This document shows, piece by piece, positions 5,619 to 63,899 of a DNA stretch of 64,000 nt. The translations under genes and the position numbers were made by a program. The number at the start of each line of letters is the position of its first letter. Within the stretch, counting starts at the first letter, position 1. The DNA is from an uncultured Bacilli bacterium (GTDB taxonomy: Bacteria > Bacillota_I > Bacilli_A > RF39 > UBA660), in NCBI GenBank assembly GCA_947627675.1, contig CANQWY010000002.1:108-64107 (forward strand). Direction: 5' to 3'. A model generated the notes under the pieces. It worked only from the letters and a program-made list of their open reading frames with translations, searched no databases and was not told where the DNA came from.

Positions 5619-7284
5619 TCACCAAACAACAAGAGAAAGACGTGAAGCATTTTGCTTATCGCCTGAACCAGTATTGTATATAAAGCCGAAAATACCATTT
5701 TGATTAATATAATTATAGGCACCGCCACAATCAAACCAAGGGTAGGTAGAATTTACAAACTTTTGATAATCTCCATAAAAGCCAGCTGTTCCATCGGCAT
5801 TTGTTGCATCTCCTTTGATTCCAGCACTGCTTGTATATAAATTATAATATTTTCTTTCTGGCATAGGATTAAATCCAGAATTATATACACTATTATTTAA
5901 GCTTCCCATTGTTTTCTCAAAAGCACCTCCTACTGTATCATATATTCCATAGATGGTTCCGGTTGTTGATGCTCCGGTTCCAGCTATTTCTTCATAATAC
6001 TGATGTTGACAACTATTACTTATACTAGCACTTGGGCTTCCTCCACTACAGCTTGTCTTAAATCCACTATAATTATTAGTATAAATCTCTTTATTAGCAT
6101 TTTTATAATTTGAATTTCCATATTTTCCATATTTACTTTGACTTAAGTATGCCATCGCTCCCCATTCCGTATTCTTTATCATATGCGTATCATAATTTTC
6201 TCCGCTTAATCCATAATTATTGGTACCGTTAGTACCGTTTATTTGGCTCTTTATGTTATTAAAAAATGATGAATGACTTTGATTTCTTATACTTGTTTGA
6301 TTAGGTAATGAAGTTATTGCACTTATTGCTCCAGTTAACTCGAATTTGCTTATCCAAATTCCTGGTAATTCTTTATTTTCTGAATTACTTCTGGTTGTTT
6401 CTACATCACAACTGTTGCCCCAACAAAATGATGAGGGTGTATAATAATTACTTGGCGTTGTTCCGGTGTATTTACCTGCTCCTTTTTCGGTTGTAGTCGT
6501 ATTTACAAATTTGATATCGAATGCTCCGGGTGTATTGATACTTGGTGATGATGCTCCTTCTATTTGATAGCCATATTGATCCCTTAATGTATAACTATAT
6601 CTTGGGATCCATACTAACATTAAGTTTACATCATTTAAATCTATTGTTGTTCCTGATGCTGCAGTTTTATATGTTGCTCTCTTAGATGGATCTTTTATCG
6701 TTACAGCATTAGCCCATATTTGTTTATCATAGTTATACCAGCTATTATTTGTATTTTCTTTATCTGCTTTTGCCCAACTACTTCCATTCCAAACTACCGG
6801 GATCATATCTCCTACTAACTCTGGTGCATTTGGTTCATTATTGTAATAGTCTTTTGTTTCTACTTTTAGTTTCCCTTTATAACTTCCTGTCCCTGTAAAT
6901 GTTATTGTTATTTGTACACTTTCTCCTACTTTTAAGTTCGCTTCTTCTATTGTTTTACTTGCTAAAGTCCCTGTTGTTGTCGTACCGTTCTTTGTATAAC
7001 TATAACTTATATTTACATCTTCTATATCTTCAACATACAGTCTATAACTTGCATCTTCTATTCCTCTATTTTCTATTGTAAATGTATATGTTTTATTTAA
7101 TTCGATATTTTCTTTATCTGAACCATTTACTCCATATATTCCTATATATCTTGTCCCTGTTTTTATTGTTATTTCTTTTTTTGTTTCTATACTCTTACTA
7201 TATTTGGCGTAAGTAACCCCCCCCCATTAGAACTATTGTTAGTATTAGGGGTATTACTAACAATATATCTTTTCTTTTTTCCAT
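5619..7284 (-). CDS. Phase-variable SipW-signal/camelysin(TasA)-like large secreted protein, copy A (OFF state as sequenced)
   Basis: ATG at 7284 with an AGGAG RBS. It encodes MEKRKDILLVIPLILTIVLMGGG and then reaches a stop 8 codons after a C9/G9 homopolymer (7217-7225). Removing one G fuses it in frame to the 395-aa ORF 5619..6806, giving about 554 aa. The N-domain resembles TasA/camelysin and the C-domain is Cys-containing and G/Y/N-rich. Confidence 0.7.
7217..7225. repeat. Poly-G/C homopolymeric tract (9 nt) inside the signal-peptide region of copy A
   Basis: taaCCCCCCCCCatt on the plus strand. A 9-mer G/C run is extremely unlikely by chance in roughly 25% GC DNA. Its position sets the reading frame. 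Confidence 0.85.
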
Positions 7285-32885: not shown

Positions 32886-33812
32886 CTATTTTATTTTCTG
32901 TTTCTTAACAGCAATATTTTGTAGTATTGTACATAAATTATTAATGAACCAATATACACATAGAGCTGATGGCATAAAAAGGGCTGTTACAATTATCATA
33001 ACACTCATATATATTGGCATTTTTTTCATTGCTGGATCTAATGTCTGACCTGACATATTCATTTTAAATGAATAGTAAGTAGTTAATGATATTAGTAACA
33101 TTATTATAATATAAGCATAAAATGATGAGGTAGTAAAACCAACTGTTGGGGTTGTTCCTAATTGTAATCCTAAAAAATTATCTTCAAATATTGCAGGAAA
33201 ACGTTGTACTGCTTCATAAAATGCTATAAAAAGTGGTAGTTGGATAAATGAAAATAAGCAACCTGAAGCAGGTGATATATTATATTTTTTATAAACAGCC
33301 ATCATTTCTTGAGATTGCATCATCATTGATTTTTCATCTTTCTTATCAGCATATTTTTTTTGAATTCTCTGCATCTCTGGCTGAGCTTTCTTCATAAGTT
33401 CTGATTGCATCGCTGTCTTTTTTGTAAATGGATAACTTATTAACCTTATTATTAGAGTTATCAATATAAGTGCTAAAGCATAATTTTTGGTTAGTTTTCC
33501 AAGTTGTAAAATAAAATAGGCTAGAGGCTTAACTAAAAAGGTCGTCCATAATCCTTCATACTTACCATCGTTTATTTTAAAATTTTCACATTTTGGTAAT
33601 TTATTTATATCTACTTTATTTTTTTTATACTGCTTTATTGTTTCTTTATCTGTTGGTCTGCAAAGTATATTCTCTGTTAAATTTTGACCAGTTATTTTAT
33701 TAGTAACCGCTTTATTATTTTTATCAGTCAATGTTTTAGTACACCCAGTTGTAATAGTTAAAAATAATAACATAACTATTAACAACTTTTTTTTATTATT
33801 ATTTCGTTTCAT
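32886..33812 (-). CDS. yidC: Membrane protein insertase YidC/SpoIIIJ (lipoprotein type)
   Basis: Lipobox LTITTGC, then the conserved YidC 60-kDa core with multiple TM segments. Confidence 0.85.
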   Translation of the reverse strand: MKRNNNKKKLLIVMLLFLTITTGCTKTLTDKNNKAVTNKITGQNLTENILCRPTDKETIKQYKKNKVDINKLPKCENFKINDGKYEGLWTTFLVKPLAYFILQLGKLTKNYALALILITLIIRLISYPFTKKTAMQSELMKKAQPEMQRIQKKYADKKDEKSMMMQSQEMMAVYKKYNISPASGCLFSFIQLPLFIAFYEAVQRFPAIFEDNFLGLQLGTTPTVGFTTSSFYAYIIIMLLISLTTYYSFKMNMSGQTLDPAMKKMPIYMSVMIIVTALFMPSALCVYWFINNLCTILQNIAVKKQKIK

Positions 33813-34143
33813 CTAAATCTCCTTTATTTAATAGTAGAGAAAATAATTGTTTTGTCAAATCTTGATATGTTAAATCTAATGCTCTACTTCTTAATATTAT
33901 AATATAATCTCTATTATTAATATAGCTTTTTCTATAAATATCTAAAATGCTCCTTATCTTTCTTTTATATTTATTTCTAGTAACAGCATTTCCTATTTTC
34001 TTCCCTACAGAAATACCAAATCTATCATATTTTAAATTATTTGATTTAGTATATACTACAAAATATTTATTTTTTTTACATAATCCTTTATTTATTAGAG
34101 CATTAAATTCTTCCTTTTCTTTTACTATATACAGTTTTCTCAT
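33799..34143 (-). CDS. rnpA: Ribonuclease P protein component
   Basis: 114 aa, basic, RNR-like motif region. Between rpmH and yidC. Confidence 0.8.
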   Translation of the reverse strand: MRKLYIVKEKEEFNALINKGLCKKNKYFVVYTKSNNLKYDRFGISVGKKIGNAVTRNKYKRKIRSILDIYRKSYINNRDYIIILRSRALDLTYQDLTKQLFSLLLNKGDLDETK

Positions 34144-34194
34144 TTTTTACCTTCTTTAAAATTTAAAAAACCACTGTTTCATCAAACGGTGGAA

Positions 34195-34317
34195 TTATTT
34201 ACAAAGATTTTTACGCCCTTTACGACGACGACGATTTAATATATTTGTTTTCTTACGTGCAAAAAAGCCTAATTTTTTAGATTTTTTACGATTATTTGGT
34301 TGATAAGTTCTTTTCAT
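34195..34317 (-). CDS. rpmH: 50S ribosomal protein L34
   Basis: Hand-translated 40 aa MKRTYQPNNRKKSKKLGFFARKKTNILNRRRRKGRKNLCK. Not in the ORF track because it is shorter than 60 aa. Confidence 0.9.
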   Translation of the reverse strand: MKRTYQPNNRKKSKKLGFFARKKTNILNRRRRKGRKNLCK

Positions 34318-34439
34318 AAAATTCCACCTCCAGACATAAATCTACCTTATTATAATAAAAAATAGTTTTACTTGTCAATTAAAAGTTGCTTTTTTATACC
34401 AATTTATGCTGAAGATAACATTTTTATTAGTTACTTTTG

Positions 34440-34660
34440 TAATAATTATTAACTTATATAATATAGTTATATGTTTTCCACATAATTAACATACTTGTGT
34501 ATATCTTTTTTTTAACTGTTTATAAAAAAAATTGTGGAAAATGTGGATAAGTTGTTTTTTCTTTTATGAAACAATATTATCTTTTGTGGAAAAAATTGTG
34601 AATTACTTGTGGATTAAATTTTTTATTATTTTTTTATTTATTTTTTCCACAAATTGATTT
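34440..34660. promoter_or_regulatory. oriC upstream DnaA-box cluster (rpmH-dnaA intergenic)
   Basis: Perfect TGTGGATAA at 34543-34551, plus at least 5 one-mismatch boxes (TGTGGAAAA twice, TGTGGATTA, TTTTCCACA twice) in both orientations. Confidence 0.75.
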
Positions 34661-34701
34661 ATTATAATTGTTATATAAGTTGCTTGGAGGGAGATGGTTG
34701 A

Positions 34702-36060
34702 ATGAATGTTGAGGTCCTATGGACCAACTTTTTACAAAAGATAAAAGAAGAACTATCTTCTCTAGCATTTGATACTTGGTTTAAAGATACAAAACTCTTT
34801 AAATTAGAAAATAATAAAGCTATTATTGTTGTTCCTATGCCTATTCATAAAAAGCATTTATCGGATAATTATGAAGAACAAATAAAGTTTATTTTAAATA
34901 CTATTACTGGTAATAATTATGATATCGAATTTTTTTTAGAAGAAGAAATAAAAGAAAGTACTATCAAACAACAAATAGAAGACATTCCTACTAATAAAGT
35001 TGATAATAAAATTAACAACAATCTAAATAGTAAATACTCATTTGAAAATTTTATAGTTGGAAATAGTAATAAATTTGCTCAAGCCGCAGCCTTATCGGTT
35101 GCTGAAAACCCTGGAAAAATGTATAATCCACTATTTATATATGGAAATAGCGGACTTGGAAAAACACATTTAATGCATGCTATTGGTAATTATATCGTTA
35201 AAAATAGCAATAAAAGAGTTTTATATGTAACAAGTGATCAATTTATCCAAGATTTTATCGGTATTAATAAAAAAGATAATACTGGAACAAATTTTAATTA
35301 TGTTGACTTTTTTAAAAACAAATATAGAAATGTTGATGTTTTAATAATAGATGATATTCAATTTCTAGGTGGTGCTACTCAAACTCAGCAGGAATTTTTC
35401 CATACATTTAATACTTTATATAGTGACTCTAAGCAAATAATTATTTCATCTGATAGATCACCTGATGATTTAAAACTTCTAGAAGATCGTCTTAGAACTC
35501 GATTTTGTTGGGGACTTACTGTTAACATTTTTCCTCCAGATTTTAATCTTAGAGTAGAAATTATCAAAAGAAAAATAATAGCTGGTAATTTTGAAAAAGA
35601 AATACCAGAAGATGTTATAGAATATATCGCTTCTAATATGGGAAATGATGTTAGACAATTAGAGGGATCTATAACAAGGCTCGTTGCCTATTCTGCTATT
35701 ATGGGGGGAACCTCAATTACATTGTCTCTTGCAATTGAAGCCTTAAAAGATTTTATAAGTAAAGGCATTAGTGAAAAAAACGATATTCATAGAATACAAA
35801 AAGTAGTTGCAGAATTTTTTCAAATTAGTGTTGAAGATATTAGAAGTAAAAAAAGAAGTAGTAATATTGCATTTCCAAGACAAATAGCAATGTATTTATG
35901 TAGAAACATAACCAATGAATCTTTTCCTAAAATAGGAACAGAATTTGGAGGCAAAGATCATTCTACTGTTATGCACTCAGTAGAAAAAATATCTCAAGAA
36001 ATAAAAGTTAATAAAGATTTAGATAATATAATAGAAAAATTAAAAAAAGATATTGGCTGA
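34702..36060 (+). CDS. dnaA: Chromosomal replication initiator DnaA
   Basis: 452 aa. AAA+ Walker A GNSGLGKTHL. C-terminal DnaA-box-binding domain. Confidence 0.95.
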   Translation: MNVEVLWTNFLQKIKEELSSLAFDTWFKDTKLFKLENNKAIIVVPMPIHKKHLSDNYEEQIKFILNTITGNNYDIEFFLEEEIKESTIKQQIEDIPTNKVDNKINNNLNSKYSFENFIVGNSNKFAQAAALSVAENPGKMYNPLFIYGNSGLGKTHLMHAIGNYIVKNSNKRVLYVTSDQFIQDFIGINKKDNTGTNFNYVDFFKNKYRNVDVLIIDDIQFLGGATQTQQEFFHTFNTLYSDSKQIIISSDRSPDDLKLLEDRLRTRFCWGLTVNIFPPDFNLRVEIIKRKIIAGNFEKEIPEDVIEYIASNMGNDVRQLEGSITRLVAYSAIMGGTSITLSLAIEALKDFISKGISEKNDIHRIQKVVAEFFQISVEDIRSKKRSSNIAFPRQIAMYLCRNITNESFPKIGTEFGGKDHSTVMHSVEKISQEIKVNKDLDNIIEKLKKDIG

Positions 36061-36202
36061 TATGTGGATATTTTCATTAATAAACTTTTTTTTCCACAAA
36101 CTATTTTTAAAAAAAATATTTATAAAATATGAAAAAATATTGTTTTCCACATTTTCCACAGTTATAATAATAATATCTATAAAAAAGAAAGAAGGAATAT
36201 AG
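36061..36202. promoter_or_regulatory. oriC downstream DnaA boxes + AT-rich unwinding region (dnaA-dnaN intergenic)
   Basis: TGTGGATAT at 36063, TTTTCCACA three times (36090, 36144, 36153), and a run of more than 90% AT between them. Confidence 0.7.
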
Positions 36203-37333
36203 ATGAAACTAAGAATAAAAAAAGAAATATTACAAGAAGCAATAAATAAGGTATCAAAAGCTATATCAACTAAAAATTTAATCCCTGTACTTGCAGGAAT
36301 AAAATTTGAACTTAAAAAAAATAAATTAACTTTAACTGCATCTGATAATGACATTACTATTCAAACTACTATTGAAGGATATGATAATGAAGATTTTCAA
36401 GTAGAAGATGAAGGTAACATTATAGTTCAAGGAAAATATATATTAGATATAGTTCGTAAATTACCAGATAAATATATAAATATAGAAGTAATAGATGAAT
36501 TAAAAATATTAATTTATACTGAAAACAGTGAATTTAATTTAAATGGTATTAATGAAAATGAATATCCTTCTATTAATTTAGAAGAAAGTAAGAAAAAAAT
36601 TGATATCAATAGTTCAATATTTAAGGATATTGTTAATCAAACTGCTTTCGCATCTAGTAATGAAGAAACAAAACCAGTTCTTACAGGAATTAATTTTAAT
36701 ATAGTAGGTAATATTTTAGAATGCAATTCTACAGATAGTTATCGTCTAGCACGTAAAGTCATTACATTAGATAAAGCAAGTGAAGAAAATTATAATATAG
36801 TAATTCCTAGTCACAATATTGTTGAATTTACAAGAATAATGGATGAAGATATTTCAGGTATAGTAGAAGTACATATATTTAATAACAAAATTTTATTTAA
36901 ATATAAAAATGTTTTATTCCAATCAAGATTAATTAATGGAACTTATCCAAATACTGCTAATTTAATGCCAGATTCTTCATATATGATTATTACTGCTAAT
37001 TTAAGTGATTTTTATGATGTAATAGATAGAGCTAGTATTTTAACTAGTGATAAAGAAAAGAACGTTGTAACATTAGAAACTAATGGTGATACTTTAATTT
37101 TAAAATCTTCTTCTATTGAAATAGGTAGAGTAGAAGAAAAAATGAAAATAAGTAAAAATGTTGATGATGATATAAAAATTTCCTTTAGTGCTAGATATAT
37201 GATGGAAGCATTAAAAAGTTTTTCCACAGAAACTGTTGAAATTCATTATGTTGGAGAAATAAAACCAATTATTTTAAAATCAAGTCAAGAAGAAACTTTA
37301 ACCCAATTAGTTTTACCTATAAGAACATATTAA
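36203..37333 (+). CDS. dnaN: DNA polymerase III beta sliding clamp
   Basis: 376 aa, three-domain clamp. Follows dnaA. Confidence 0.95.
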   Translation: MKLRIKKEILQEAINKVSKAISTKNLIPVLAGIKFELKKNKLTLTASDNDITIQTTIEGYDNEDFQVEDEGNIIVQGKYILDIVRKLPDKYINIEVIDELKILIYTENSEFNLNGINENEYPSINLEESKKKIDINSSIFKDIVNQTAFASSNEETKPVLTGINFNIVGNILECNSTDSYRLARKVITLDKASEENYNIVIPSHNIVEFTRIMDEDISGIVEVHIFNNKILFKYKNVLFQSRLINGTYPNTANLMPDSSYMIITANLSDFYDVIDRASILTSDKEKNVVTLETNGDTLILKSSSIEIGRVEEKMKISKNVDDDIKISFSARYMMEALKSFSTETVEIHYVGEIKPIILKSSQEETLTQLVLPIRTY

Positions 37334-37470
37334 AAACAATATTTAAGAAGATCAACTAGATCTTTTTATTTTTTTAGTCTATCCTACAAAATACGATAAA
37401 TATCGACTAAGAAATATGCTATTATTTGTTTAGAAAACGAGAAAAAAGTCGTTTTCTAGGGGGAGAAAAT

Positions 37471-41292: not shown

Positions 41293-43767
41293 ATGGCAGA
41301 TAGATTAGAAAAAAATAATATAGTACAAGAAGTTAAGGATTCATTTCTTGAATATTCAATGAGCGTTATTGTATCACGTGCTTTACCTGATTTAAGAGAT
41401 GGTTTAAAACCAGTACATAGACGTATTTTATATTCAATGGATGAATCTGGTTATACACCTGATAAACCTCATAAAAAGAGTGCTAGAATAGTAGGAGATG
41501 TAATGGGAAAATATCATCCTCATGGTGACTCTTCTATATATGAAGCAATGGTTAGAATGGCTCAAGATTTTTCTTATAGATATATGCTGGTTGATGGACA
41601 TGGTAATTTCGGAAATATTGAGGGTTATGGTGCCGCTGCAATGCGTTATACAGAATCTCGACTTTCTAAAATTTCTCTAGAACTTTTAAGAGATATTAAT
41701 AAAAATACTGTTAATTTTAGTCCAAATTTTGATGAAACTGAAAGAGAACCAGAAGTCCTTCCAGCTAGATTCCCTAATATTTTAGTAAACGGTGCAATGG
41801 GAATTGCAGTTGGAATGGCGACTAATATTCCTCCTCATAATTTAAGTGAAGTTATAGATGGTTGTGTTGCTTATATTGATAATCCTGATATTGATTTGGA
41901 TGGTTTGATGAAATATATTAAAGGACCAGATTTTCCAACAGGTGCTACAATATTAGGAAATAGTGGTATTAGAAAGGCTTATGAAACTGGTCGTGGTTCT
42001 ATAACTATTAGAAGCAAGGCAAGAATAGAGGAAGAAAATGGTAAACATTATATTATAGTCGATGAAGTTCCATATGGAGTTAACACACTTGAGCTAAAAA
42101 ATAAAGTTGCTGAACTTGTTCATAATAAAACAATAGAGGGAATTAGTGATTATCATACCGATTTGAAAGATGGAGTTAGAATAACAATAACTTTAAAAAG
42201 AGATGCAAATCCTCAAGTAGTTCTTAATAATTTATATAAACATACTTCCTTTCAAATTAATTATGGAATTATATTTTTAATGCTTGATCAAGGTGTTCCT
42301 AAAACTTTAGGTCTTAAAGATATTATAGTTAAGTATATTGATTATCAAAAAGAAGTTATAATTCGCCGTACTAGATTTGATTTGGATAAAGCTGAAAAGC
42401 GTGCCCATATCTTAGAAGGATTAAAAATAGCTTTAGATCATATAGATGATATTATAAAATTAATTAAATCTTCAAAGAGTGATGAAGAAGCTATGAAAGG
42501 TTTAATTAATAATTATAATTTAAGCGAAGCACAGGCCCAAGCTATTTTGGAAATGAAACTTAGAAGATTAACAGGATTAGAACGAAATAAAATCGAAAAT
42601 GAACTTAATGCTTTGCTTAAAGAAATAGAAGAACTAAAAGCCATATTAGCAAGCGATGAAAAAATTTTAAATATTATAAAAGAGGAAATGTTAGATATAA
42701 AAAGTAGATTTGGTGATGAAAGAAAAACTAATATTGATATGACTGCTATTGAATATATTGAAGACGAATCTTTAATTCCAGTTGATGATATTATAGTTAC
42801 ATTAACAAATAAAGGTTATATTAAACGTGTTAAAAGTGATGTTTATAGAACACAAAATCGTGGAGGAGTAGGAATTAAGGGTATGGCAACTAATGAAGAA
42901 GACTTTGTTGAGAGTTTAGTTAATATGAAGACTCACGATTATTTATTGTTTTTCTCAAATTTTGGTAGAGTTTATAGATTAAAAGGATACGAAATTCCTG
43001 AATTTGCTAGACAATCTAAAGGATTACCAATTATTAATTTACTATCTTTAGATAAAGAAGAAAAAATCAATTCAATGATAAATATTTCATCTGAAAATGA
43101 AAAAGTCAAATATTTAATTTTTGTAACAAAAAATGGTCTTGTAAAAAGAACACCTCTTAATGAATTTGATTCGATACGAACAAGCGGAAAAATTGCGATT
43201 ACTTTAAAAGACGATGATCAGCTAATTAGTGTTAGAAAAACTTCTGGAAATGATGAAATAATTATAGGTGCAAGTAATGGACGTATGGTTAGATTTAATG
43301 AAAATGAAGTTAGGTCAATGGGACGTACAGCAAGTGGAGTTAAAGGTATTGAATTAGATGAAAGTAATGTTGTTGGATCTGAAGTTGTGAAACCAAATCA
43401 ATATGTTTTGATTGTTACAGAAAAAGGCTATGGTAAACAAACTTTGATTGATGAATATAGATTGACTCATAGAGGAAGTAAAGGTGTAAAAGCACTAAAT
43501 ATGACAGATAAGAATGGTAGTATTGTGTCTTTAAAAACTATTGATAATATAGAAGAGGTAGACTTAATGATTATTACCAATAGTGGTGTTATAATGCGAA
43601 TGCCTTTATCTCAGGTATCTGTTTTAAAAAGAGCGACTCAAGGAGTTAGACTTATTAATTTAAAGGATGATCAAACTGTTTCAACTGTTGCAATAGTAGC
43701 TAAGGAAGAAAGTCAAGGCATTGATACTATTGAAGATGCTGATAATAAAGAGATTACTTCTGAATAG
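41293..43767 (+). CDS. gyrA: DNA gyrase subunit A
   Basis: 824 aa. Active-site Tyr region (AAMRYTE). QRDR-like motif [13 protein letters not shown]-terminal beta-pinwheel. Confidence 0.95.
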
Positions 43768-44662: not shown

Positions 44663-44764
44663 TAATATAATAAATGAAATTGAGATGTTTTCATTGAATT
44701 ATATAGATATATTAATCATAATTTTATATGAATCTATAAATTATGTACAATATATAATTAAGTA

Positions 44765-45335
44765 AATTATTTCCCGGGAAATAATTTAAAACTTTTTATT
44801 TATAGAAATTTCAAATTTTAATTTTTTAATTAAAAATAATTTGATAACATTTTTTAAGAAATTAATTCATTTATAAAAATATTATCATTATTTAGTATTA
44901 ATAAAAAATATAAACTCAAACTTGATATTTTTTAAAGATTAACGTTTCACGTGAAACATTGTATTTTTTTCTTATTCTTATCATTAAATTTTTTTAGGAT
45001 ATTATTTCCCGGGAAATAATTTAAAACTTTTTATTTATAGAAATTTCAAATTTTAATTTTTTAATTAAAAATAATTTGATAATATTTTTTAAGAAATCAA
45101 TTCATTTATAAAAATATTATCATTATTTAGTATTAATAAAAAATATAAATTCAAACTTGATATTTTTTAAAGATTAACGTTTCACGTGAAACATTGTATT
45201 TTTTTCTTATTCTTATTATTAAGTTTTTTTAGGATATTATTTCCCGGGAAATAATTTAAATAATTATAATGTTTCACGTGAAACATAAAGAAATAAGCAG
45301 TTATTAAATAAAAAAAATATTTCCCGGGAAATATT
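44765..45335. repeat. 235-bp direct tandem repeat (2 full units + partial) carrying alternating NBS and parS palindromes
   Basis: NBS ATTTCCCGGGAAAT at 44769, 45004, 45239 and 45319. parS at 44943 and 45178 (CGTTTCACGTGAAACA, 15/16) and at 45270 (TGTTTCACGTGAAACA, 16/16). Unit period is exactly 235 bp with near-identical units. Confidence 0.85.
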
Positions 45336-45391
45336 TTGAAATAGATAATATAAATAAATTGCTTTTTTTAATAGTTTATTATAAAATGTAA

Positions 45392-45987: not shown

Positions 45988-47649
45988 ATGTATCAAACGT
46001 TATATAGAAAATATAGATCTAAAAAATTTTCTGAACTAGTTGGACAAGACGTTATTGTTAAAACATTAAAAAACTCTATAAAAAACGAAAAAATTTCACA
46101 TGCATATTTATTTGTAGGTCCACGAGGAACAGGAAAAACTTCAACTGCTAAAATATTCGCGAGAGCTGTAAATTGCTTAGATAATGATGCTGGAGAAATT
46201 TGCGGAAAATGTTCTATGTGCAATATATCAAATAGTAGCGAATGTTTAGATATTATAGAAATAGATGCTGCTTCTAATAATGGTGTAGATGAAATAAGAA
46301 ATTTAAGAGATAAAGTTAATTTAGTTCCTAATCAACTTAAATATAAAGTATATATTATTGATGAAGTACATATGTTAACTATCCAAGCTTTTAATGCTTT
46401 ATTAAAAACACTGGAAGAACCACCAGAACATATTATATTTATATTGGCAACTACTGATATACAAAAAGTTCCGGAAACTATTATATCTAGATGTCAATGT
46501 TTTAATTTTTCTAGAATGACACAACAAAATATAATAGATAATTTATCTAAAATATGTAATGAGGAAAAAATTAATATAGATTTAGAAGTACTAAAGCAAA
46601 TTTCATTAGCTGCTGATGGCGGAATGAGAGATGCACTGAGTATTTTAGATAAGTTAATTTCATATGGTGAAGATAATATAAAATTAGATGATTTTTTACA
46701 ACTTAATGGTCTAGTTACAGTAACTGAAATAGAAAGTTTTATAAACTATATTTTTTCTAAGGACGTAAAAAATGTTATTGATCAAATATGCGATTGGAAT
46801 TTAAAAGGTAAAAATTTAATTCAAATTATGATGCAATCATTAGAATATTTAAAGGATAAATTAATTAGAGCATATACAGATAATAATGATATTAATACTA
46901 ATAAATATCAAATGCTTGCAAATTTATTGAATGAAAAAATGATAAATATTAAAAAAAGTTCTAATCCTAATATTTATATTGAAATTATTCTTTTAGATTT
47001 TATTTCTTCACTTAATAATGAGTTAAATATTTCCCGGGAAATAATTCCAGAAAAAAGTTCGAGTGATAATAATGTTTCACGTGAAACATTATTAGAATCA
47101 AAAAATACAATTAACTACAAACAAATAGAAAAAAAAGATATTACTAACTCTTTAGATGAACAAAATAGTAATATAAGAGATATAATGAATGTTAGAATAA
47201 ATAATACTTTTATAGATGCAACAAAAAACGAACTAAAACAAATGATAAATGAATTTAGTAAATTAAATGATTATGTTTTTGATCAAAATATTGGTTATTT
47301 AGTTTGTGCATTATTAGAAGGAAAGATTAGATTAAGTAGTTCTGAATATATAGTAATAAGTTATGAATATGACTCAGTAGTAAGTACAAATATTGTTAAT
47401 TATCAGAAAATGGAATCTGTTTTAAAAGATATACTTAATATAAATAAAAAAATTGCAATTATTTCTGATTCTGATTGGAATAAGGTTGCAAAAGATTTTA
47501 TAGAAAATAAGAAAAATAACATTAGTTATGAATATATAGAAGAACCAGAACTATTGTTTGATAAAACAAAAAAAATAGAAAATAATACAAATAATAAAAA
47601 TAATGATAGCATTTCAGATGTATTTGGTGATATAGTAGAAATATACTAA
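45988..47649 (+). CDS. dnaX: DNA polymerase III subunit tau (single-product, gamma/tau)
   Basis: AAA+ GPRGTGKTS. Zinc module CGKCSMC. 553 aa. Position before ybaB-recR. Confidence 0.9.
   Translation: MYQTLYRKYRSKKFSELVGQDVIVKTLKNSIKNEKISHAYLFVGPRGTGKTSTAKIFARAVNCLDNDAGEICGKCSMCNISNSSECLDIIEIDAASNNGVDEIRNLRDKVNLVPNQLKYKVYIIDEVHMLTIQAFNALLKTLEEPPEHIIFILATTDIQKVPETIISRCQCFNFSRMTQQNIIDNLSKICNEEKINIDLEVLKQISLAADGGMRDALSILDKLISYGEDNIKLDDFLQLNGLVTVTEIESFINYIFSKDVKNVIDQICDWNLKGKNLIQIMMQSLEYLKDKLIRAYTDNNDINTNKYQMLANLLNEKMINIKKSSNPNIYIEIILLDFISSLNNELNISREIIPEKSSSDNNVSRETLLESKNTINYKQIEKKDITNSLDEQNSNIRDIMNVRINNTFIDATKNELKQMINEFSKLNDYVFDQNIGYLVCALLEGKIRLSSSEYIVISYEYDSVVSTNIVNYQKMESVLKDILNINKKIAIISDSDWNKVAKDFIENKKNNISYEYIEEPELLFDKTKKIENNTNNKNNDSISDVFGDIVEIY
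47029..47088. promoter_or_regulatory. NBS (47029-47042) + perfect parS (47073-47088) pair embedded in-frame in the dnaX coding sequence
   Basis: ATTTCCCGGGAAAT and TGTTTCACGTGAAACA (inside the 26-bp perfect palindrome AATAATGTTTCACGTGAAACATTATT), separated by 30 bp. Encodes ...NISREIIPEKSSSDNNVSRETLL... in the variable linker of tau. Confidence 0.75.
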
Positions 47650-59471: not shown

Positions 59472-60233
59472 ATGTATATTGATACACATTGTCATATTTC
59501 AAAAGATTATTATTCAGATATAGATAAAATTATAGAAGAAAATAAAAAAAATTTTATTGATAAAATAATTATTTCTGGTTGTGATAAGAAAAGTATTATT
59601 GAGAGTATTGATATATCTAATAAGTATAAAGATATATATTTATGTATAGGATATCATCCTGATGAAGTAGGAAAAATAACAAATTTTGATATAGTTATTG
59701 ATGAACTAGAAAAAATTGTTAGTAGTAATAAGAAAATAGTTGCTATAGGTGAAATAGGATTAGACTATTTTCATAATAAGGAAAATAAAGATTTGCAAAT
59801 AAAATTTTTTGAAAAACAACTTTCGTTAGCGGAAAAATTAAAATTGCCAGTAGTTATTCATTCTAGAGAAGCTACAATGGATACAATTAATTGTTTAAAG
59901 AAATTTAATGTTACTGGGGTAATCCATTGTTTTAGTGGTAGTTTAGAAACTGCTAATATATATATTAAAATGGGATTTAAACTAGGAATAGGAGGAGTTG
60001 TAACTTTTAAAAATTCTAAATTAGTAGAAGTTGTAAAAAATATTGGTTTAGATAATGTAGTTTTGGAAACTGACAGTCCTTTTTTAGCTCCAGAGCCATA
60101 TAGAGGTACCATTAATAGTTCAAAAAATATTCCTATAATTGCAGATAAAATTGCCAGCACTCATAATATATCAAAAGAAGATGTTGGGAAAATTACTAGC
60201 GATGTGGCTCGTAAAGTTTTTAAATTAGATTAG
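59472..60233 (+). CDS. tatD: TatD-family deoxyribonuclease
   Basis: HCH N-terminal motif (IDTHCH), 253-aa TIM-barrel hydrolase. Follows metG, as does yabD in Bacillus. Confidence 0.85.
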   Translation: MYIDTHCHISKDYYSDIDKIIEENKKNFIDKIIISGCDKKSIIESIDISNKYKDIYLCIGYHPDEVGKITNFDIVIDELEKIVSSNKKIVAIGEIGLDYFHNKENKDLQIKFFEKQLSLAEKLKLPVVIHSREATMDTINCLKKFNVTGVIHCFSGSLETANIYIKMGFKLGIGGVVTFKNSKLVEVVKNIGLDNVVLETDSPFLAPEPYRGTINSSKNIPIIADKIASTHNISKEDVGKITSDVARKVFKLD

Positions 60234-60243
60234 TTTTATATAA

Positions 60244-60873
60244 AAAGAAAAAAATAAAACATCAAAACAAGTATTATTATCAGTACTTGGAGTAGCAATT
60301 TTGATTGTTGCTGTTGTAGGTATTTCATTCGCTGCTTTTACTTATACTAAAACAGGAGTTCAAGAAAACACTATTTCTACTGGTACCGTTACTATGTCTT
60401 ATACTGAAGGTCAAAATGGTATAAATATTGAGAATGCTATTCCTATGACCGATACTCAAGGTAAGGCTTTAACAGGTGATAATAATGTCTTTGATTTTAC
60501 TGTTTCTGCCACTATCACTGGTAAGACAACTATTAACTATGAGGTTGTTGCTGTTAAAGACTCCTCAAGTACAATTTCTGATGATAGTATTAGATTATAT
60601 CTAGAAGATAGTGATCAACAAAACGAAGGATATGAAGAAGTATTTGGCCCTGCTAAATTTACTGGAATATCATCACCATCTACATATGGAGCCCCAACAG
60701 GAACGATGCAACTTGCACAAGGTTCGTTTACTAATAATGCTGATGATGGTGCTCAAACTACAATTACTAAATATTATCGCTTAAGAATGTGGGTTGATTC
60801 ATCTTATGAACTTACTGGTACTTCTCAAAAATATAAAGTTACTGTTAACGTCTATGGTAAAGGTCAAGATTAA
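60244..60873 (+). pseudogene. Camelysin/TasA-like N-domain paralog lacking a canonical start codon
   Basis: The open frame begins right after a stop at 60241 with a complete SipW-type signal-like sequence (KEKNKTSKQVLLSVLGVAILIVAVVGISFAAFTYTKTG) but no ATG or GTG; the first possible start is TTG at 60301, inside the hydrophobic region. The body resembles the TasA beta-sandwich N-region. Confidence 0.45.
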
Positions 60874-60995
60874 GATTAAATTAAGGAGAGCGTAAGGTCT
60901 TTTTTATTTTTAGAGATAATGCTAGAAGAATAAAGTACTTGAAAATAAAAAATAGATGATGTAGAATTTAAATATAAAATAGAAGGAGAAAGAAA

Positions 60996-62643
60996 ATGGA
61001 AAAAAGAAAAGATATATTGTTAGTAATACCCCTAATACTAACAATAGTTCTAATGGGGGGGGGTTACTTACGCCAAATATAGTAAGAGTATAGAGACTAA
61101 AAAGGAAATAACAATAAAAACAGGGACAAGATATATAGGAATATATGGAGAAAACAAAGAAAATATAGAATTAAATAAAGAATATACATTTACAATAGAA
61201 AACAGAGGAGCAGAAAACGCAAGTTATAGACTATATATCGAGAATATAGAAAATAGTAGTATAAGTTATAGTTATACAAAGAACGGAATAACAACAACCG
61301 GAACATTAGCAAGTAAAACAATAGATGAAGCCAATTTAAAAGTAGGAGAAAAAGTACAAATAACAATAACATTTAGCGGAAGTGGAAATTATAAAGGAAA
61401 ACTAAAAGTAGAAACAAAAGACTATATTAATGAACCAAATGCACCAGAGTTAGTAGGAGATATGATCCCAGTAACATATAATGGAACAAACTGGGTAAAA
61501 GCAGATATAAATAAAAACAATTGGTATGATTATAATAGAGGAGTCTGGGCGAATGCTGTAACGATAAAAGATGCAAATAAAAGAGCAACATACAAAAGTG
61601 CTCAAGCAGGAACACTAATAGATTTAAGTTATGTAAACTTAATGTTAGTATGGATCCCAAGATACTCATATACATTAAGACAATCATATGGATATCAAAT
61701 AGATGGAGCATCAACCCCAAGCATTAATACACCCGGAGCATTTGATATCAAATTTGTAAAGACAAGTACAACCGAAATGGGAAGCGGAAAATATAGTGGA
61801 GAAGAACCAACAGGCTATTTTACACCCTCATCATTTTGTTGGGGCAACAGTTGTGATGTAGAGTCGACGAGAGGGAGCTCAGGAAATACAGAATTATCTG
61901 GAATCTGGATAAGTAAGTTTGAGCTTACTGGAACAATAAGTGTAATAACATCAAAACCAAATGAAACAAGTATAACAAATCAAAGCACATCTTCGTTCTT
62001 TAATGCTATAAAAACACAGATAAATGGAAGTAGTGGAACAACAAATTATGGATTAAGCGGAGAAAATTACGATACGCATATGATAAAGAATACGGAATGG
62101 GGAGCAATGGCATATTTAAGTCAAAGTAAATATGGAAAATATGGTAATTCAAATTATACAGGAGCAAATAAAGAGATTTACATAAACAATTATAGTGGTT
62201 ATAAAACAGGATGTAGTGGAGGAAGTCCAAGTGCTAGTCAAAGTTCTAGTTGCCAATATACTTATAATATAGAAACAAATGGAACCGGAGCCAGTACTAC
62301 TGGAACAATATATGGAATATATGATACATCAGGAGGAGCTTATGAAAGAGTGATGGGGAACTTTAATAATGTGCTACCAGCTTCTAGATTTAATTCCATG
62401 CCAGAAAGAAAATATTATAATTTATATACAGGAACAATAGGAATCAAAGGAGATGCAATAAATGCAGATGGAACGGCAGGTTTTTATGGAGATTATCAAA
62501 TATTTGTAACTTCTTCTCAACCTTGGTTCCAACGTGGCGGTTACTATGGCAATGGTGTTATCGCGGGCGTCTTCAGCTTCTACTACAGCAATGGCGATGC
62601 TATCCACTACCGCGGTTCACGCTTTGCTATTTCTACTTGGTAA
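60996..62643 (+). CDS. Phase-variable SipW-signal/camelysin(TasA)-like large secreted protein, copy B (OFF state as sequenced)
   Basis: ATG 60996 with AGGAG RBS, then MEKRKDILLVIPLILTIVLMGGG, a G9 tract (61055-61063) and a stop 8 codons later. With G8 it reads through LMGGVTYAKYSKS... into ORF 61462..62643, giving about 548 aa. It is 90-95% identical at the nucleotide level to copy A over the 5' 150 nt. Confidence 0.7.
61055..61063. repeat. Poly-G homopolymeric tract (9 nt) in the signal-peptide GG(G) motif of copy B
   Basis: taatGGGGGGGGGttac. Identical in length and context to the copy A tract. Confidence 0.85.
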
Positions 62644-62840: not shown

Positions 62841-63899
62841 TTATTTACTATTATTTAGTTTAATTAACTTATAAAATTTATCATCATATTTTAGTTTTAT
62901 TTCATTATCCAATAAAATATTTATATATATAACTACTGGGTAGCCTTTTACTATATTTAAATATTTGCCATTATTTATAACTTTATAGAAATTATCTTTA
63001 TAGTTTACAATATTACCATCTAACATTTCTGTTTCAATTTTTATATAATACATATTAGATAAATCTAAATTTTTTGTGGATAAAAAATGATTTTTAGTAT
63101 TTTTAGGATTATATGAATACTTTTTATTTAGATATTCAACATAAAAACTGTTAAACCAATCATTTAATTTATTATATTTTTTTATATCAAATCTTTTTAA
63201 ATCATTAATCAACCTATTTTGAATAATTCTATTTTTATTTTCTATTTTTCCTTTAGATGGCACTGTATAAGTAGTAATTAAATTAATTTTAAGATTTTCG
63301 CATATCTTTGCTAACCTAAAAAGTTCTTCTTCTTTTTTATTTAGAATTGTATGAATATCGCAGTATATATTCTCTGGTATACCATATTTTTTTAGAATAA
63401 TATCTAATATACGTAAGTATCCTAAAAGACATTCTTCTGGCATAAAGTAGCCTGCTAATATTTCACCAGTAGCATCATCAATTGCCATATGTAATGAAAA
63501 ATTTTTATTATTCTGTAGCCAGTCGTTAGGGGTTCCGTCAATAATTATTAAAATGCCTCTATTAGGCATTGGTTCTCGTAAAGGATGATATGTATAATCT
63601 TTAATATTTTTATAGCTATTAGGTTTAGGCCAATTAAATTTTTTAAATAAATTTTCATAAAATGAATAACTTCTTTTTTTTAAATTATTTTTTATTACTA
63701 TATCTTGCTTATTTTGATTAAATATAATATCTTCATGATAGATATCCATAAATTGCTGTATACTAATATTTGGATAGTTTAATTTAAAATTTTTAATAAA
63801 ATTAATTTCTTTTATAGATGATGAATTATTAGATGGTTTATTTGATAAGCCATGAATAAGTGCTCTGTTTATATCTTTTTCCATTATAATTTTTGACAT
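62841..63899 (-). mobile_element. DDE (rve-like) transposase ORF of an IS element, possibly N-terminally disrupted
   Basis: Candidate catalytic D in LIIIDGTPNDW, a downstream acidic block, and GK-x-E (VPSKGKIENKNRIIQN) matching the integrase-core E region. The frame is open upstream of the ATG to about 63986, with an HTH-like stretch (GILTGYTKRQI) but no start codon. Confidence 0.5.

Follow-up and report, generated by a model that had tools for sequence, protein, structure and literature searches.

How can a gene-sized open reading frame (ORF) remain intact when nothing at its 5' end would allow the whole of it to be translated? The question is raised by ORF X, a frame situated directly after tatD in a 64,000-nt stretch of DNA (hereafter the window, positions 108 to 64,107 of contig CANQWY010000002.1) from an uncultured Bacilli bacterium of the RF39 group. 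Our answer, which we hold tentatively and short of an even chance, is that ORF X is a silent cassette of a recombining multigene family. It would be a 5'-truncated gene copy without promoter, ribosome-binding site (RBS) and start codon, from which the full-length exported protein could not be made in place. Its intact frame would persist through homologous recombination with other copies, by way of constant blocks, and expression would have to await transfer of its sequence into a translatable copy.

The frame itself is beyond doubt. It follows an in-frame TAA (60241-43), opens at 60244 and continues over 209 codons to the TAA at 60871-73; since shuffled versions of its variable part carry a mean of 13 in-frame stops (none of them had zero), it is not due to chance. 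Codon-by-codon inspection found no ATG, GTG, TTG, CTG or ATN in frame between 60244 and the hydrophobic core, the codons ahead of the core being AAA GAA AAA AAT AAA ACA TCA AAA CAA GTA TTA TTA TCA GTA CTT GGA GTA GCA, and the earliest start-like codons, ATT 60298 and TTG 60301, both lie inside the h-region. A preliminary description of this DNA, made by reading the sequence, had already reported an open frame with no ATG or GTG before the hydrophobic core, and rightly so. It had further credited the frame with a complete n- and h-region, which is true of the h-region; the n-region of the family has the form M-(D/N/E/K)5-15-NTSKQ, and ORF X retains KEKNK only. The AAFTYTKTG motif that it pointed out is present (as FAAFTYTKTG) and is the counterpart of GVTYAKYS in two phase-variable genes of the window, copies A and B. 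The higher GC content that it had ascribed to the locus is real for ORF X (0.33, the window as a whole having 0.254; among 630-nt windows it ranks in the top 4%), yet has a simple explanation: by codon position the values are 0.44, 0.42 and 0.13, the last being housekeeping-like, and because the excess is confined to positions 1 and 2 it reflects amino-acid composition. Foreign DNA was rejected as its source, the third-position GC being native. An alternative genetic code was likewise rejected: no in-frame TGA occurs in 19 large genes, TAA, TAG and TGA all serve as stops, and the window follows the standard table 11. Matches to a sigma-70-like internal promoter were no more frequent than in shuffled sequence (18 versus 23), and no Rfam RNA element was matched in the 58-64 kb region.

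What ORF X has lost can be seen in two sister species, represented by L047 (73.5% nucleotide identity to the window over the spoVT-metG-tatD stretch) and L052 (77.6% over tatD). Their gene order is spoVT, metG, tatD, one or two ORF X-family genes, signal peptidase I, three small genes and ksgA, so that tatD also precedes the ATG-bearing orthologs. The orthologs at the tatD locus (L047/48/49 and L052/54) possess a Shine-Dalgarno sequence and an ATG; the sister-species gene has a 126-nt intergenic region with a TGTATATAAT box, AGGAGG and ATG. None of this is present in the window, where the first codons are missing as well. It had been proposed earlier that an ortholog with a normal ATG would indicate a simple point mutation; such orthologs do exist (L047 and L052), but the entire 5' region is gone and a point mutation does not account for that. 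Family homology in the window starts at 60242, and further upstream nothing matches the leader of the paralogs. In the window copy 17 nt separate the 5' constant block from the tail of tatD, and the join creates the in-frame TAA, whose T (60241-43) is the final base of the junction at 60234..60241. A terminator scan between tatD and ORF X found none.

The DNA that we compared comprises the window and six further loci (L040, L042, L044, L045, L046 and L050), from four ENA samples of one study. In an ungapped comparison of the seven copies the A-rich leader of the other six is 24 nt long and differs by substitutions only; its Shine-Dalgarno remnant is degenerate in most of the seven, and the leader remnant in the window (60242..60258) contains neither a Shine-Dalgarno sequence nor a start codon. 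Judging from the alignment, the ATG may have disappeared through one 30-39-nt deletion or by substitution to AAG, ATA, TTA or GTA; the choice is ambiguous because the leader is of low complexity and aligns ambiguously. Beyond the 24-nt leader the upstream flanks are locus-specific, the paralogs being found after spoVG, after ybjQ, after genes like copies A and B, and next to a type IV pilin gene. (The last, a pilin-like gene beginning MEKYSKINNKGFTLIEVIAAVV, occupies L040 1631-1771, downstream of an ORF X paralog with an in-frame ATG.) Past the 5' constant block, identity among the copies falls abruptly to about 66%; at the other end, all seven have a near-identical 3' block that runs on beyond the stop. 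The same block is nearly identical to that of L052 (window 60259-60348 versus L052 4031-4120), with three differences over the approximately 87 nt inspected, all in ATT TTG ATT; as tatD is just 78% identical between the two, this suggests nucleotide-level constraint or exchange between lineages. No second or inverted copy of the block was found in the window at up to three mismatches. Site-specific inversion is therefore not supported, the block being single. An exact scan of JGI metagenomes with 40 nt of the constant block gave 0 matches.

Loss of the normal start is not confined to ORF X. The lineage of the window holds at least 15 distinct proteins of the family, and the canonical family start is present in 0 of 15. 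Six are called from an internal TTG; another six start at a GTG or TTG overlapping the TGG TAG end of an upstream gene like copies A and B; two use an ATG 54 nt upstream, within locus-specific DNA; and the remaining one (P0022) has the N-terminus MVFAYIIKKG, which was read from the protein only. In the window, L044, L045 and L046 there is no in-frame canonical start, and L045 has an additional premature TAA within the 5' block. In other genomes most copies have an ATG (a few a GTG) just before the charged n-region, with the exceptions of L025, which is 5'-truncated, and L013, which has lost its start; from the latter it follows that start loss is an occasional event elsewhere in the family too. 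The L013 copy lies in CAOJDX010000005.1 (3911-3990), where KGVKVWKKNKEII stands against KGVKKMKQKKKNKEII in a paralog; CAOJDX01 has 12 family loci.

The copies are mosaics of one another. Variable blocks are shared among them in a reticulate manner: TKTGVQENTISTGT is common to the window copy and P0024, VAKKGEGCTI to P0002 and P0019, and DSSYELTGTSQ to the window copy and P0010. P0003, P0019 and P0029 are identical over 58-61 residues and then diverge, while P0004 and P0020 carry the same locus-specific N-terminal extension with an in-frame ATG, and their cores are just 57% identical. The four-gamete test was failed by 54.5% of informative-site pairs, and in a test resembling the pairwise homoplasy index (PHI) the incompatibility of neighbouring sites was 0.495 versus 0.545 after shuffling, with 0 of 2,000 permutations as low. 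The cores differ by a synonymous divergence (dS) of 0.5-1.1, at a median ratio of nonsynonymous to synonymous divergence (dN/dS) of 0.44, and no copy has a stop or frameshift 3' of the 5' block. Because the end blocks stay identical while the cores differ to this extent, ongoing exchange is needed. Conservation is strong in the part that would be untranslatable: variable sites number 1 in the 42 nt before TTG 60301 as against 5 in the 24 nt of the leader (p=0.02), and the 42 nt are identical to those of L052, another species.

Several start-less copies, conserved blocks flanking a variable core, and segmental recombination are thus found together, and since ORF X appears to exchange segments with other copies, we take it for a cassette kept silent and in reserve within a family of variable surface or fibre proteins. 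Such a cassette fits the anatomy of the locus, the mosaicism, the intact frames and the conserved but untranslatable N-terminal coding part. The preliminary description had mentioned a silent cassette among its options, and this is plausible within ORF X's own multicopy mosaic family, not with regard to copies A and B. As candidate recipients we would name a copy adjacent to sipW and those copies that have gained an ATG, GTG or TTG in frame, such as the P0004/P0020 locus with its in-frame ATG and differing cores. No sipW was found by tblastn in the 64-kb window. The contig L055, from the sample of L046 and L051 and of similar coverage, begins inside the 3' constant block directly upstream of sipW, and continues with an ancestral-type terminator (it matches the L047 intergenic region), sipW, three small genes, ksgA and yabG. 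Because L055 opens in the 3' block, a family copy immediately precedes sipW in the window's lineage; the assembly broke at the repeat, and the 5' end of the copy is missing from it. One of the small proteins encoded after sipW in the sister species (L047 6002-6502; L052 5917-6429) gives a short match to the N-domain of copies A and B (tblastn E=0.03-0.04), the matching stretches being HTFNVTNRGSVDASYKVMIYD against YTFTIENRGAENASYRLYIEN; it may be an accessory subunit like TapA or CalY.

ORF X belongs to a large family of proteins. A homology search returned 1,121 hits with clustering at 90% identity, and at 50% identity there were 4,402 representatives with E<=0.001; a Pfam search gave no hit for ORF X at E<=1, nor did NCBIfam give any. 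In the great majority of the 150 best homologs the match begins within about the first ten residues, and the domain occurs either alone (approximately 200-220 aa) or N-terminally in proteins of up to 1,743 aa. Almost all members consist of a Met, a short charged stretch, a conserved segment and then a beta-sandwich. The segment, SKQxLLSVLGVAILxVAVVGxSFAAF (S7 to F32), is nearly invariant family-wide, with G26, A30 and F32 as invariant columns of the alignment, a degree of conservation seldom seen in signal peptides. For ORF X, AlphaFold gives a beta-sandwich with a predicted local distance difference test (pLDDT) score above 90 for residues 60-209; against the PDB, Foldseek matched the model to generic jelly-roll and carbohydrate-binding module (CBM) folds only (E of about 1e-3). 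TasA was absent from the best 50 Foldseek matches, and a profile search with the family did not find TasA in the PDB. Of the TasA-like, beta-rich domain suggested earlier, the beta-rich character is thus upheld by the model, and the likeness of the mature domain to TasA is not upheld by either search.

The resemblance to TasA lies elsewhere. As in TasA and camelysin (CalY) of the tapA-sipW-tasA system, the signal ends in small-x-A/A-F (the slash marking cleavage, which is putative for ORF X) with Phe at P2', a property that qualifies TasA as a substrate of SipW (PMC10269814). The first mature residues of TasA align with ORF X (xTxxTGT, then NxxP), and both proteins are beta-sandwiches. In the sister species, the gene that immediately follows the ortholog codes for a signal peptidase I of the archaeal type, which scores 111 and 107 bits on TIGR02228 (cutoff 51.9) and 91 bits on the SipW model. 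Beyond the signal, the similarity reaches no further than about 35 residues into the mature part; hhalign aligned ISFA/AFTY with TWA/AFND of TasA at only 6% probability, and the best match of any family member to the NCBIfam TasA model (NF046066) was that of P0080, with E=0.003 and 16.9 bits versus a cutoff of 450, over residues 7-80. Unlike TasA, ORF X has neither a Peptidase_M73 match nor an NCBIfam TasA match above threshold, and its family is multicopy, mosaic and often fused to large C-terminal domains; unlike usual signal peptides, its hydrophobic segment is far longer and far more conserved. From these comparisons the product of ORF X is probably a secreted protein, putatively processed by a SipW-type peptidase, and the family appears akin to TasA in signal and context, not demonstrably in fold.

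Three other accounts of the missing start have to be weighed against a silent cassette. One supposes that the start codon has shifted, the whole family being translated from TTG 60301 with GGAG 8 nt upstream; all copies would then be live and yield 190-aa products beginning MIVAVVGISFAAF, the former n-region and the first half of the h-region would now serve as 5' leader, and transcripts of tatD, after which there is indeed no terminator, would run on through ORF X. The GGAG-N8-TTG spacing is like that of real starts in the window, and TTG stands at this codon in every start-less copy as against 0 of 8 ATG-bearing homologs with the same peptide (they have TTA or CTT), although TTG makes up only 8% of Leu codons. 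The frame defects, moreover, are seen only upstream of the TTG (the TAA of L045 and the junction TAA of the window), and a TTG start would explain how one start-less 5' end could spread without loss of function. Against this, the product would lack the charged n-region and the nearly invariant residues S7 to I19 and would keep about ten residues ahead of the putative cleavage site, which is too short for a normal signal peptide, and no inspected family member naturally begins there. As the 5' block is identical in all copies, the TTG counts as having arisen only once, for which the probability by chance is about 0.08, and the 42 nt in front of it are more conserved than the leader and identical to L052, which would be unexpected in a mere leader. 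On balance we think a shifted start rather unlikely, if still a live rival. The preliminary description had allowed for a non-canonical start codon; initiation upstream of the core is without support, and TTG 60301 is the form in which the idea survives.

A plain pseudogene is an unlikely solution in our estimate. ORF X would be a duplicate that lost its function not long ago, or a syntenic copy whose own 5' end had been replaced by a defective one; it would have no role as donor, and its frame would be intact only because the loss is so recent. The missing promoter, Shine-Dalgarno sequence and ATG, the in-frame TAA at the junction and the decayed terminator after ORF X agree with it, as do the insertion sequence (IS) element adjoining the module, the broken sipW-ksgA synteny, the premature TAA in L045 and the occasional start-less copies in other genomes (L013, 1 of the 12 CAOJDX01 loci). 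Yet at least 15 copies hold frames of at least 190 codons in DNA of 25% GC, in which chance alone would put 13 stops into each copy, and every defect falls within the first 10% of the gene; identical end blocks combined with divergent cores (dS as above) require ongoing exchange, and the start-less copies themselves participate in the mosaic pattern. The decaying duplicate considered earlier therefore agrees with the rearranged, IS-flanked setting and the weak terminator, and conflicts with the intact frames and the ongoing exchange. Very improbable, finally, is that the full frame is translated by an unusual route, yielding a peptide that covers KEKNKTSKQVLLSVLG: from an upstream non-start codon, by read-through of the tatD stop with a frameshift at A7 (60248-54), or through phase variation of A7. 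The constant length of the 24-nt leader, in frame in 6 of 7 copies despite its A-runs, would suit such a route, and A7 minus one A would join the tatD frame, past its TAG, to ORF X. But no ATG, GTG, TTG, CTG or ATN occurs in frame from the TAA to ATT 60298; there is no start after the stops of the other frames (TAG 60231-33 in the tatD frame, TAA 60221-23 in the third); a tatD fusion needs stop read-through plus a shift; the Shine-Dalgarno remnant is degenerate and the code standard; and because the upstream flanks differ between loci, there is no common upstream start. Frameshifting or read-through from tatD was accordingly rejected on the three frames over 60228-60300, none of which offers a start after its stops.

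The silent cassette has its own difficulties. Among the copies retrieved from this lineage, none was seen with promoter, ATG and constant block together. Every start-less copy carries GGAG-N8-TTG, so that translation in place is possible, and that all copies seen should have a null 5' end makes better sense if this end is not null after all. The dN/dS values and the integrity of the frames may date from before the start was lost; the recombination signals denote exchange, without direction or a flow from silent to expressed copies; and that the loci come from a single genome we infer from common samples, similar coverage and identical blocks. A more specific version, in which this low-GC gut Firmicute would vary a TasA-like, SipW-processed surface or fibre subunit through gene conversion, with more than 12 scattered, full-length, start-less cassettes, each with a poly-G phase-variable partner, feeding one translatable sipW-adjacent locus by way of identical handles (90 nt at the 5' end, approximately 60 nt at the 3' end), is in our view doubtful.

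The features of the locus are collected in Table 1.

Table 1. Features of the ORF X locus, with positions in the window (a slash within a peptide marks the putative or known cleavage point)
Feature	Position	Strand	Description
tatD (YchF/TatD family nuclease)	59472..60233	+	TIGR00010, 254.8 bits versus cutoff 206; stop TAG 60231-33
Junction	60234..60241	+	Like the sister-species tatD 3' tail: TTTATGTAA in L047 (3860-3875), TTTTATAT in the window
Leader remnant	60242..60258	+	17 of the 24 nt of the paralogs' A-rich leader, AAAAAGAAAAAAATAAA, identical to L045
ORF X	60244..60873	+	209 codons plus stop: truncated n-region, conserved hydrophobic segment, FA/AF motif, beta-sandwich domain
5' constant block	60259..60348	+	90 nt, 99-100% identical in seven copies at different loci; encodes TSKQVLLSVLGVAILIVAVVGISFAAFTYT
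Putative internal RBS and start	60289..60303	+	GGAG-N8-TTG; the product from TTG 60301 would have 190 aa, beginning MIVAVVGISFAAF
Putative SipW-type cleavage region	60319..60351	+	G-I-S-F-A/A-F-T-Y-T-K; Phe at P2' as in TasA (TWA/AFND)
Variable core	60349..60777	+	Mean pairwise identity 50-84% per 30-nt window among paralogs; blocks shuffled among copies
3' conserved region	60778..60892	+	CGCTTAAGAATGTGGGT (RLRMWV), a less conserved stretch, near-identical GTTACTGTTAACGTCTATGGTAAAGGTCAAGATTAA, then GATTAAATTAAGGAGAGCG past the stop
Terminator-like hairpin after ORF X	60877..60909	+	Weakened: -7.1 kcal/mol versus -13.0 in paralog L046
Copy B	60996..62643	+	Own Shine-Dalgarno sequence and ATG 60996; G9 at 61055-63 puts the long frame out of phase
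ISNCY-family transposase gene	62841..63899	-	NF033594 E=8.5e-48, 163 bits (equivalog cutoff of 250 not reached); tblastn matches to annotated ISNCY transposases

The hairpin at 60877..60909 was not picked up by a terminator consensus scan. Downstream of it lies copy B, and the intergenic sequence between the two genes also follows the paralogs L045 and L046, which makes ORF X plus copy B a repeated two-gene module. Copy B has a counterpart in copy A (5619-7283 on the reverse strand, with G9 at 7217-25); the two are 82.6% identical overall and have the same 5' leader and signal to just past the G9, which sets the long frame off from the ATG, so that both appear OFF and a G8 or G11 would restore them. 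ORF X had been described as a paralog of their N-domain, a claim that did not survive comparison. By BLASTP the similarity (E=0.002) covers residues 8-63 only, that is the signal peptide and some 20 further residues; there is no match in the mature domain, hhalign gave a probability of 16% for ORF X against the copy A/B N-domain, and the N-domain of copy B has weak Ig-like matches (CARDB/DUF11), not to the ORF X family. A tblastn search with ORF X found no paralog in the window. The longest DNA shared between ORF X and copies A and B is at most 11 nt, and they form no repeat family; without DNA similarity beyond this length ORF X cannot be a donor for copies A and B. The relation between them is of another kind. 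In other genomes and in L044 a domain of the ORF X type is fused N-terminally to the C-domain of copies A and B (with the motifs ...PELVGDMIPV..., WYDYD and WANAVTIKD...), and because both N-domains are joined to the same C-domain, they are alternative modules for the same position. The L044 protein (1084-2892, 602 aa) with an ORF X-type N-domain and a copy-A/B C-domain is a member of the poly-G gene set. In L050 (4820-4949) the start of a poly-G gene, ATG ... AAT GGGGGGGGG, comes directly after an ORF X paralog, and a phage-type integrase adjoins. Directly after copy B, where the sister species have sipW, three genes and ksgA, the window has the ISNCY transposase gene; the element may mark the rearrangement that parted ORF X from sipW.

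Start-less copies, conserved blocks and mosaics are familiar from the pilE/pilS genes of Neisseria, the vlhA pseudogenes of Mycoplasma synoviae, MgPa of M. genitalium and vlsE of Borrelia. As in those systems, the ORF X family has many copies without promoter, RBS and start, and a variable core between blocks. It differs in that the expression site is here a candidate only; in that its copies, far from being internal fragments, are full-length frames that include a signal peptide and a terminator of their own; and in that they are scattered, each is paired with a separate phase-variable gene, and some have usable alternative starts. The vlp, vsp and vsa genes of Mycoplasma are likewise a multigene surface family with a near-identical leader and signal block in a low-GC, host-associated relative of the Firmicutes, and their homopolymer switching recalls the G9 genes (copies A and B) that neighbour ORF X. 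They have, however, a start in each copy or rely on site-specific inversion at a defined site (vsa). For ORF X, the window contains no inverted copy of the block and no recombinase is linked; nor are the proteins of its family lipoproteins, unlike the variable lipoproteins of Mycoplasma.

Elsewhere in the window, the sign of the GC skew changes near 34-35 kb (33800-37400), and dnaA (TIGR00362, 520 bits) starts at 34702; as the skew switches near dnaA, the region of the replication origin falls within the window, with copy A about 27 kb away on one side and copy B about as far on the other, both of them on the leading strand. At 44755-45390 there are two 235-nt repeats in tandem (97% identical) and a third, partial copy, each with the palindrome TATTTCCCGGGAAATA, and a palindrome GTTTCACGTGAAAC occurs at 45270-45286 and again at 47073-47089, downstream of an 824-aa gene (41293-43767).

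The locus bears on how such genes are annotated and assembled: the 190-aa proteins that gene callers derive from the internal TTG are probably wrong calls, or at least unproven ones, and the identical end blocks break assemblies right at the informative locus. If the TTG is the true start, a whole paralogous family would have shifted its start codon into its own signal peptide. If, on the other hand, ORF X is a silent cassette, recombination-based surface variation, so far mainly a matter of pathogens (Neisseria, Borrelia and Mycoplasma), would extend to an uncultured, spore-forming lineage of gut commensals and to a TasA-like, SipW-dependent family with about 4,400 cluster representatives and no Pfam model; and were gene conversion into an expressed copy to prove true, antigenic variation in the style of pilS or vlhA would be at work in a new protein family and a new bacterial group.

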